The notes under the pieces were generated by a model that worked only from the letters and a program-made list of their open reading frames with translations, did not search any database and was not told the DNA's origin. From Escherichia coli (lineage in GTDB: Bacteria > Pseudomonadota > Gammaproteobacteria > Enterobacterales > Enterobacteriaceae), in the NCBI RefSeq assembly GCF_024502345.1, contig NZ_JALDNN010000001.1: a DNA stretch of 64,000 nucleotides. One strand, written 5' to 3'. This document shows positions 43,298-43,445 of this stretch, piece by piece. Each line of letters opens with the position of its first letter. Position 1 is the first letter of the stretch. Position numbers and translations under genes: made by a program.

Positions 43298-43317
43298 AAC
43301 TGTCGATACGTACAGTA
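43298..43317. promoter_or_regulatory. LexA (SOS) box upstream of ydjM
   Basis: aaCTGTcgatacgtACAGta matches CTGT-N8-ACAG; a second, degenerate box may follow at about 43313-43335. Confidence 0.7.
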
Positions 43318-43445
43318 TAGGATTTTTATACAGTGCACGGAAGTGGTGACGGTGTAACTCTTTCTCTTAAATTGACGATTAATCCGTCAGTTGAATGCAA
43401 ATTCAGATAAAGAACCAGGGGCAGCGTGATCACTGCCCCTGGTCA

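Follow-up and report, generated by a model that had tools for sequence, protein, structure and literature searches.

LexA operators of Gammaproteobacteria follow the consensus TACTG(TA)5CAGTA, and those of ydjM and cho (also called ydjQ) in Escherichia coli are already known, both genes having stood in E. coli SOS regulon lists since 2000–2001. The LexA box of cho is reportedly due to Fernandez De Henestrosa 2000 and to Moolenaar et al. 2002 (PNAS 99:1467), and the proximal ydjM box described below (box 1) is said to agree with the sequence in Fernandez De Henestrosa et al. 2000 (Mol Microbiol 35:1560). Indeed, a review table drawn up after Fernandez De Henestrosa 2000 and Courcelle 2001 gives both ydjM and cho a ‘known SOS box’ (PMC6590174), and cho is elsewhere described as LexA-regulated (PMC3820734). 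For ydjM, PMC4951493 presents the tandem LexA sites as ‘experimentally reported’, with credit to Fernandez De Henestrosa 2000. As for expression under AZT, the 2024 RNA-seq study of PMC11228462 found that the non-cleavable lexA3 mutant expressed ydjM at an 8.6-fold and cho at a 5.1-fold lower level, and AZT induced ydjM 2.5-fold, whereas cho was not induced (0.77-fold) although it was lexA-dependent there. Ciprofloxacin induces both genes (PMC11002266), as does nalidixic acid in Salmonella, where ydjQ has one box (heterology index 6.69) and ydjM has two, one at 14 bp from the start (heterology index 9.12) and the other at 32 bp (12.85) (PMC8072944). In colicin genes, double SOS boxes consist of a strong and a weak site that overlap at their ends and are bound cooperatively (PMC4951493, citing Gillor 2008), and the tandem arrangement of the lexA operators is conserved across Gammaproteobacteria (PMC4951493).

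The DNA analysed here is a window of 64,000 nucleotides of the E. coli chromosome, whose counterpart in MG1655 lies at about 1.79–1.85 Mb. The window is inverted relative to that genome, since the order in the MG1655 record is ydjM (b1728) ... nadE, cho (b1741), ves and spy. Three elements of this window are almost certainly the LexA operators (SOS boxes) of the classical E. coli LexA regulon members ydjM and cho, because they top an independent matrix and fall within the score range of proven sites, because their footprints are conserved (ydjM in 80 of 80 loci, cho in seven other genera), and because the literature provides regulon membership together with LexA-dependent expression. Note that the LexA dependence of expression and the binding at the ydjM tandem sites are taken from that literature, our own contribution being sequence, score, position and conservation. 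Both regulated genes lie on the minus strand: ydjM (42693–43283) encodes a 196-aa protein of the inner-membrane metal-dependent hydrolase family, and cho (29294–30181) encodes the 295-aa excinuclease Cho from a GTG start. Their products matched curated family models over the full length and above the cut-off: YdjM reached 123 bits with Pfam PF04307 (YdjM; cut-off 29, E = 1e-35) and 372 bits with NCBIfam NF008651 (PRK11648; cut-off 216, E = 5.5e-112), and Cho reached 575.9 bits with the NCBIfam ‘excinuclease Cho’ equivalog NF007833 (cut-off 367, E = 1.3e-173), residues 1–287 of the protein aligning with positions 1–287 of the profile. The Pfam search gave no match for Cho. In addition, a 1.3-kb piece around the ydjM boxes was found in 5,423 of the 5,426 complete E. 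coli genomes, at 95–100% identity and with ydjM and hxpB as annotation.

Upstream of ydjM, the span 43298–43335 is made of two 20-mers that have 2 bp (TA) in common and whose centres are 18 bp apart. The proximal, palindromic operator (box 1) occupies 43298–43317 on the minus strand and reads TACTGTACGTATCGACAGTT on the gene strand, with a 16-bp core at 43300–43315, and the distal, weak operator (box 2) occupies 43316–43335 on the minus strand and reads CACTGTATAAAAATCCTATA on the gene strand. Read towards the gene, the region runs ...CCGTG, CACTGTATAAAAATCCTA, TA, CTGTACGTATCGACAGTT, TAGTGAGTTTTATC and ATG, the TA closing box 2 and opening box 1. The cho operator, at 30195–30214 on the minus strand with a 16-bp core at 30197–30212, lies in the gene-strand context ...CTGTTA, CACTGGATAGATAACCAGCA, TTCGGAGTCAACA and GTG, in which CACTGGATAGATAACCAGCA is the operator itself. 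In the letters of the window, the core of box 1 is CTGTCGATACGTACAG and fits CTGT-N8-ACAG, and that of the cho box is CTGGTTATCTATCCAG and fits CTG-N10-CAG. All three boxes are intergenic and upstream of minus-strand genes, 13–52 nt before the start codons. The LexA criterion CTG-N10-CAG is found in the cho box and in ydjM box 1; box 2 has a good left half-site, and its right half has CTA in place of the required CAG (CTG-N10-CTA). Two CTG/CAG motifs are said to be necessary for specific LexA binding (PMC5999292), and box 2 is without one of them. By its letters, box 2 would qualify only as a weak or auxiliary LexA site.

The cores of colicin boxes overlap by about 1 bp, and their centres are about 15 bp apart. 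As in the colicin genes, a well-formed and a degenerate box overlap at ydjM by their terminal bases, and the weak box is without one CAG. Unlike this colicin geometry, the 16-bp cores at ydjM are separated by 2 bp and the centres by 18 bp. The ydjM promoter also resembles that of lexA in having two LexA sites side by side; in contrast, each lexA box carries CTG/CAG in both arms and the two boxes stay clear of each other, whereas the distal box of ydjM is half-palindromic. Compared with the E. coli records themselves, the ydjM pair is at the same locus and has the same two sites as the tandem boxes of Fernandez De Henestrosa 2000, with no substantive difference, and the cho box does not differ from the published one, the LexA motif of cho printed in Table 4 of PMC3009722 being identical in its 20-mer, gene and position.

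Bare patterns say little about such sites. In the 64-kb window, CTGT-N8-ACAG was seen once (0.76 expected), and CTG-N10-CAG was seen 27 times where dinucleotide shuffles predict 12.9, nearly all of the matches being within genes. This excess is most likely an effect of codon usage (CTG and CAG codons) and not of LexA, and since codon usage doubles the frequency of CTG-N10-CAG, counting this pattern alone is a poor way to detect LexA sites in E. coli. With both patterns about as frequent in the window as chance predicts, one could suspect that the three matches are chance palindromes without any regulatory role, an explanation to which we give practically no credence: the three boxes are the top three full-matrix matches and sit at intergenic promoter positions, and conservation across genera as well as the published LexA-dependent expression contradict it.

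The matrix in question is a symmetrised 20-bp LexA matrix based on 17 E. coli sites from Table 4 of PMC3009722; cho was removed from the training set, and ydjM is absent from that table. Among the approximately 64,000 positions of the window, the three boxes took ranks 1, 2 and 3: the cho box with 18.9 bits (0.013 expected per window), ydjM box 1 with 15.8 bits (0.11 expected) and ydjM box 2 with 13.8–13.9 bits depending on the background (0.41 expected). A maximum score of 18.8 was attained just twice in 200 dinucleotide shuffles of the window. When scored by leave-one-out, the 17 proven LexA sites ranged from 9.3 to 26.7 bits, a range that includes all three boxes, and seven of these sites were outscored by the cho box, four by ydjM box 1 and two by ydjM box 2. 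Taken alone, box 2 stands at chance level across the 64-kb window; as the direct neighbour of box 1 it is significant, because its per-site probability is 6e-6. The heterology indices that we computed were 8.0 for cho, 10.7 for ydjM box 1 and 12.3 for ydjM box 2.

These scores bear on a preliminary description of the same DNA, which had proposed scoring with a LexA matrix and had taken low scores as an argument against the boxes; those obtained are the highest of the window. Its strong CTGT-N8-ACAG LexA box before ydjM is indeed present. It had also noted a weaker SOS-like palindrome at cho, and here only one part stands: the element is a LexA operator, but not a weaker one, as its 18.9 bits compare with 15.8 and 13.8 bits at ydjM, and the published heterology index, for which lower values mean stronger binding, is 7.5 for cho and 9.0 for ydjM (PMC11228462). 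The two genes were misranked because CTGT and ACAG were over-weighted, the proven sites of ruvA, recN and dinI also carrying CTGG or CCAG (PMC3009722 Table 4). The full matrix cleanly parts true LexA sites from the background, which bare pattern counts cannot do. Note that the fourth-ranked match of the window (27817–27836, GACTGGTGATAAATAAAGCA, in the astE–spy spacer upstream of spy) has 12.3 bits, with about one such match expected; it is without the second CAG and is probably due to chance.

To follow the ydjM operators across species, a YdjM scan with one genome per species provided 80 loci from about 25 enterobacterial genera. The operator region was the best matrix match of the whole locus (~3.6 kb) in all 80, box 1 outscored box 2 in 79, and the top two matches formed a pair exactly 18 bp apart in 76. 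Conservation is unbroken over a block between about 43362 and 43296, and CCTATACTG, where the boxes join, shows at least 95% conservation over the 80 loci. The second, overlapping box that the preliminary description had considered possible is therefore upheld, at 43316–43335 with 2 bp shared, being both published and part of the recurrent 18-bp pair. Within box 2, the two halves differ: the good half-site YACTGTATAAAA recurs at the same 18-bp offset in 78 of the 80 loci, spread over about 25 genera, and is gone in two (L015 and L024), whereas the degenerate half CCTATA has CTA for CAG in 80 of 80 loci and CAG in none.

Such an invariable CTA is also what one would expect if box 2 were simply part of the promoter, either an A/T-rich spacer or a TATAAA resembling a −10, with a LexA-like half-site by chance, box 1 alone repressing the gene. 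The score of box 2, reached 0.41 times per window by chance and surpassing just two of the 17 proven sites, points the same way, as do the two loci L015 and L024, which lost the good half-site and kept box 1, and the fact that RegPrecise is without box 2 according to PMC4576408, the paper that prints its 20-mer as the ydjM site at −52. However, we regard this explanation as unlikely, since a chance half-site would hardly stay at a constant 18-bp offset in 78 of 80 loci and about 25 genera. In addition, PMC4951493 cites the tandem sites as experimentally reported, the Salmonella study also counts two ydjM boxes (PMC8072944), and colicin genes are known to bind LexA cooperatively at a strong site that overlaps a weak one (PMC4951493). 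We thus keep box 2 as a second, weak LexA operator of ydjM.

Two observations concern the DNA next to this pair. One base just upstream of box 2 and outside the boxes differs, with T in the window and C in other Escherichia (CCGTG vs CCGCG). Farther upstream, a block at 43337–43362 (minus strand, AAGAGAAAGAGTTACACCGTCACCACTTCCG) that belongs to neither box shows 95% conservation or more across the 80 loci, GTTACA within it being nearly invariant; this block may be the −35 region or the site of another factor.

For cho, seven orthologous loci were compared (Salmonella, Kosakonia, Leclercia, Enterobacter, two Citrobacter and Yokenella), and the box was kept in all seven other genera sampled, with 15.3–21.2 bits. 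The nadE–cho spacer is otherwise unalignable, except for four conserved elements, namely a T-tract, CTGYTAYACTG with the box, GGAG and GTG. The last two elements concern the start of the gene, about which the preliminary description had raised a doubt: it had found the cho element unusually close (16 nt) to its start codon and took this as a hint that the true start or the transcript architecture may differ from what the longest open reading frame gives. The gap between the cho core and GTG 30181 is in fact 15 nt, and the equivalent gap between the core of ydjM box 1 and ATG 43283 is 16 nt. Nor is such a distance unusual, as the SOS boxes of Salmonella lie 6–21 bp from the start (PMC8072944 Table 1), with 6 bp for lexA, 8 for recN, 15 for umuD and for the dinB homologue, 17 for yebG, 19 for dinI and 21 for sulA. 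A 15-nt gap being normal for SOS genes, it gives no ground for doubting the cho start.

It could still be argued, from this short separation and from the fact that Cho proteins in databases vary from 287 to 330 aa with annotated starts differing by species, that translation or the transcript begins farther downstream. Yet the length variants of 301, 302 and 330 aa start within or upstream of the box, that is, in the opposite direction, and the signals around GTG 30181 leave this a highly improbable reading. Indeed, the ribosome-binding site GGAG (30188–30191, minus strand, 6 nt upstream of GTG) is invariant in the eight aligned genera while its flanking bases vary, the GTG is conserved in all seven genera for which that stretch is available (the C. 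amalonaticus slice ended just past GGAG), and the spacing between the two is 6–7 nt across genera. GTG 30181 is the first canonical start following the in-frame stop, no in-frame ATG, GTG or TTG being present between the two in E. coli, and in Yokenella a 1-nt deletion between GGAG and GTG disrupts the frame upstream, so that a longer frame is broken. On the downstream side, Cho has its next in-frame Met at about residue 47, within the region of the conserved nuclease motif, and the alignment with the NCBIfam profile already includes residue 1. As for the transcript, any start downstream of the box would need to lie in the 15 nt before the GTG, where the ribosome-binding site is. We thus retain GTG 30181 as the start of cho.

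The longest-ORF problem belongs to ydjM rather than to cho. Its longest open reading frame (200 aa) begins at GTG 43295, four codons before the annotated ATG 43283 and 2 nt from box 1. The ATG is the start in the MG1655 annotation and is kept in 80 of 80 loci, and the upstream GTG is not conserved in other genera. Annotated Cho starts in related species also deserve mention. The protein is given 302 aa in Salmonella (L082), 301 aa in Enterobacter hormaechei (L085) and 330 aa in Citrobacter amalonaticus (L088), and the called starts (position 601 in each locus) are inside the LexA box or farther upstream, Salmonella and E. hormaechei having an in-frame ATG within the box (CTGGATGAAT or CTGTATGCCT). 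Because GGAG-N6/7-GTG is conserved, these three starts are probably over-extended, and a Cho start called inside the box would explain the ‘distance 0’ given for Salmonella ydjQ (PMC8072944).

Regarding the promoters, a strict sigma-70 scan found none at ydjM or cho, and a relaxed scan gave TTCCGT-17-TATACT as the best match at ydjM and TTTTTA-16-TACACT at cho, each with 7 of 12 consensus positions. The candidate −10 hexamer of ydjM, TATACT, would thus lie at 43314–43319 (minus strand), at the junction of both operators, and that of cho, TACACT, at 30211–30216 (minus strand), overlapping the upstream edge of the operator. The surrounding CTGYTAYACTG of cho is conserved in eight genera, with TATACT in Salmonella and Citrobacter. 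From these scans, both promoters look weak, which fits the absence of detectable GFP from Salmonella ydjM and ydjQ fusions (PMC8072944). These hexamers, the transcription starts and the cooperativity at ydjM are what we infer from the letters and their conservation.

Several features surround these promoters. After hxpB and upstream of the ydjM promoter, a terminator-like hairpin at 43413–43444 (minus strand; 14 pairs, 9 of them G-C) shows 80% conservation or more among the 80 loci, which argues that ydjM uses its own promoter and is not reached by read-through. Upstream of cho, the conserved T-tract lies at 30228–30243 (minus strand, CCGCCTCTTTTTTAAT), 20–30 nt before the box, and has been given as a second ‘motif’ before UV-induced genes (PMC3009722). 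In Leclercia and E. hormaechei this tract comes after a distinct G+C hairpin that is the terminator of nadE, and no hairpin was detected before it in E. coli; the tract probably acts both as a terminator tail and as the −35/UP region for cho. In the same nadE–cho spacer and on the cho strand, about 75 nt upstream of the cho box, an Rfam match to the sRNA ES036 (CssrF) at 30289–30331 (minus strand) has 38.0 bits (gathering score 37.6), and it could have a bearing on transcription reaching cho from upstream. Two other Rfam matches of the window, the phenylalanine leader Phe_leader at 54188–54312 (plus strand, 75 bits) and the enterobacterial sRNA STnc540 at 58152–58310 (plus strand, 67 bits), are known features unrelated to the LexA boxes.

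Altogether, the layout suggests how repression would operate. In the undamaged cell, one LexA dimer would occupy each operator, that is, one operator at cho and two abutting ones at ydjM. Each gene-proximal operator appears to begin in the likely −10 hexamer (TAYACT) and to cover the expected transcription start, box 2 of ydjM covering the spacer in addition, and LexA on the −10 and start would thereby keep RNA polymerase off the promoter. Upon DNA damage, RecA filaments would lead to the self-cleavage of LexA, the operators would be vacated, and the genes would be transcribed. By analogy with colicin promoters, the weak box of ydjM probably leans on cooperative binding with its strong neighbour. 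It is further conceivable, although we think it less likely than not, that box 2 is permanently half-palindromic since its 3′ half doubles as the −10, the weak site and the −10 sharing bases: a restored CAG arm would destroy TATACT, and such a constraint would explain why CAG was never acquired in box 2. If this is true, the ydjM pair would be a conserved chromosomal design of the colicin type, with a strong and a cooperative weak site, which would refine known biology, and the layout with the −10 inside the box (TAYACT) would hold for cho too.
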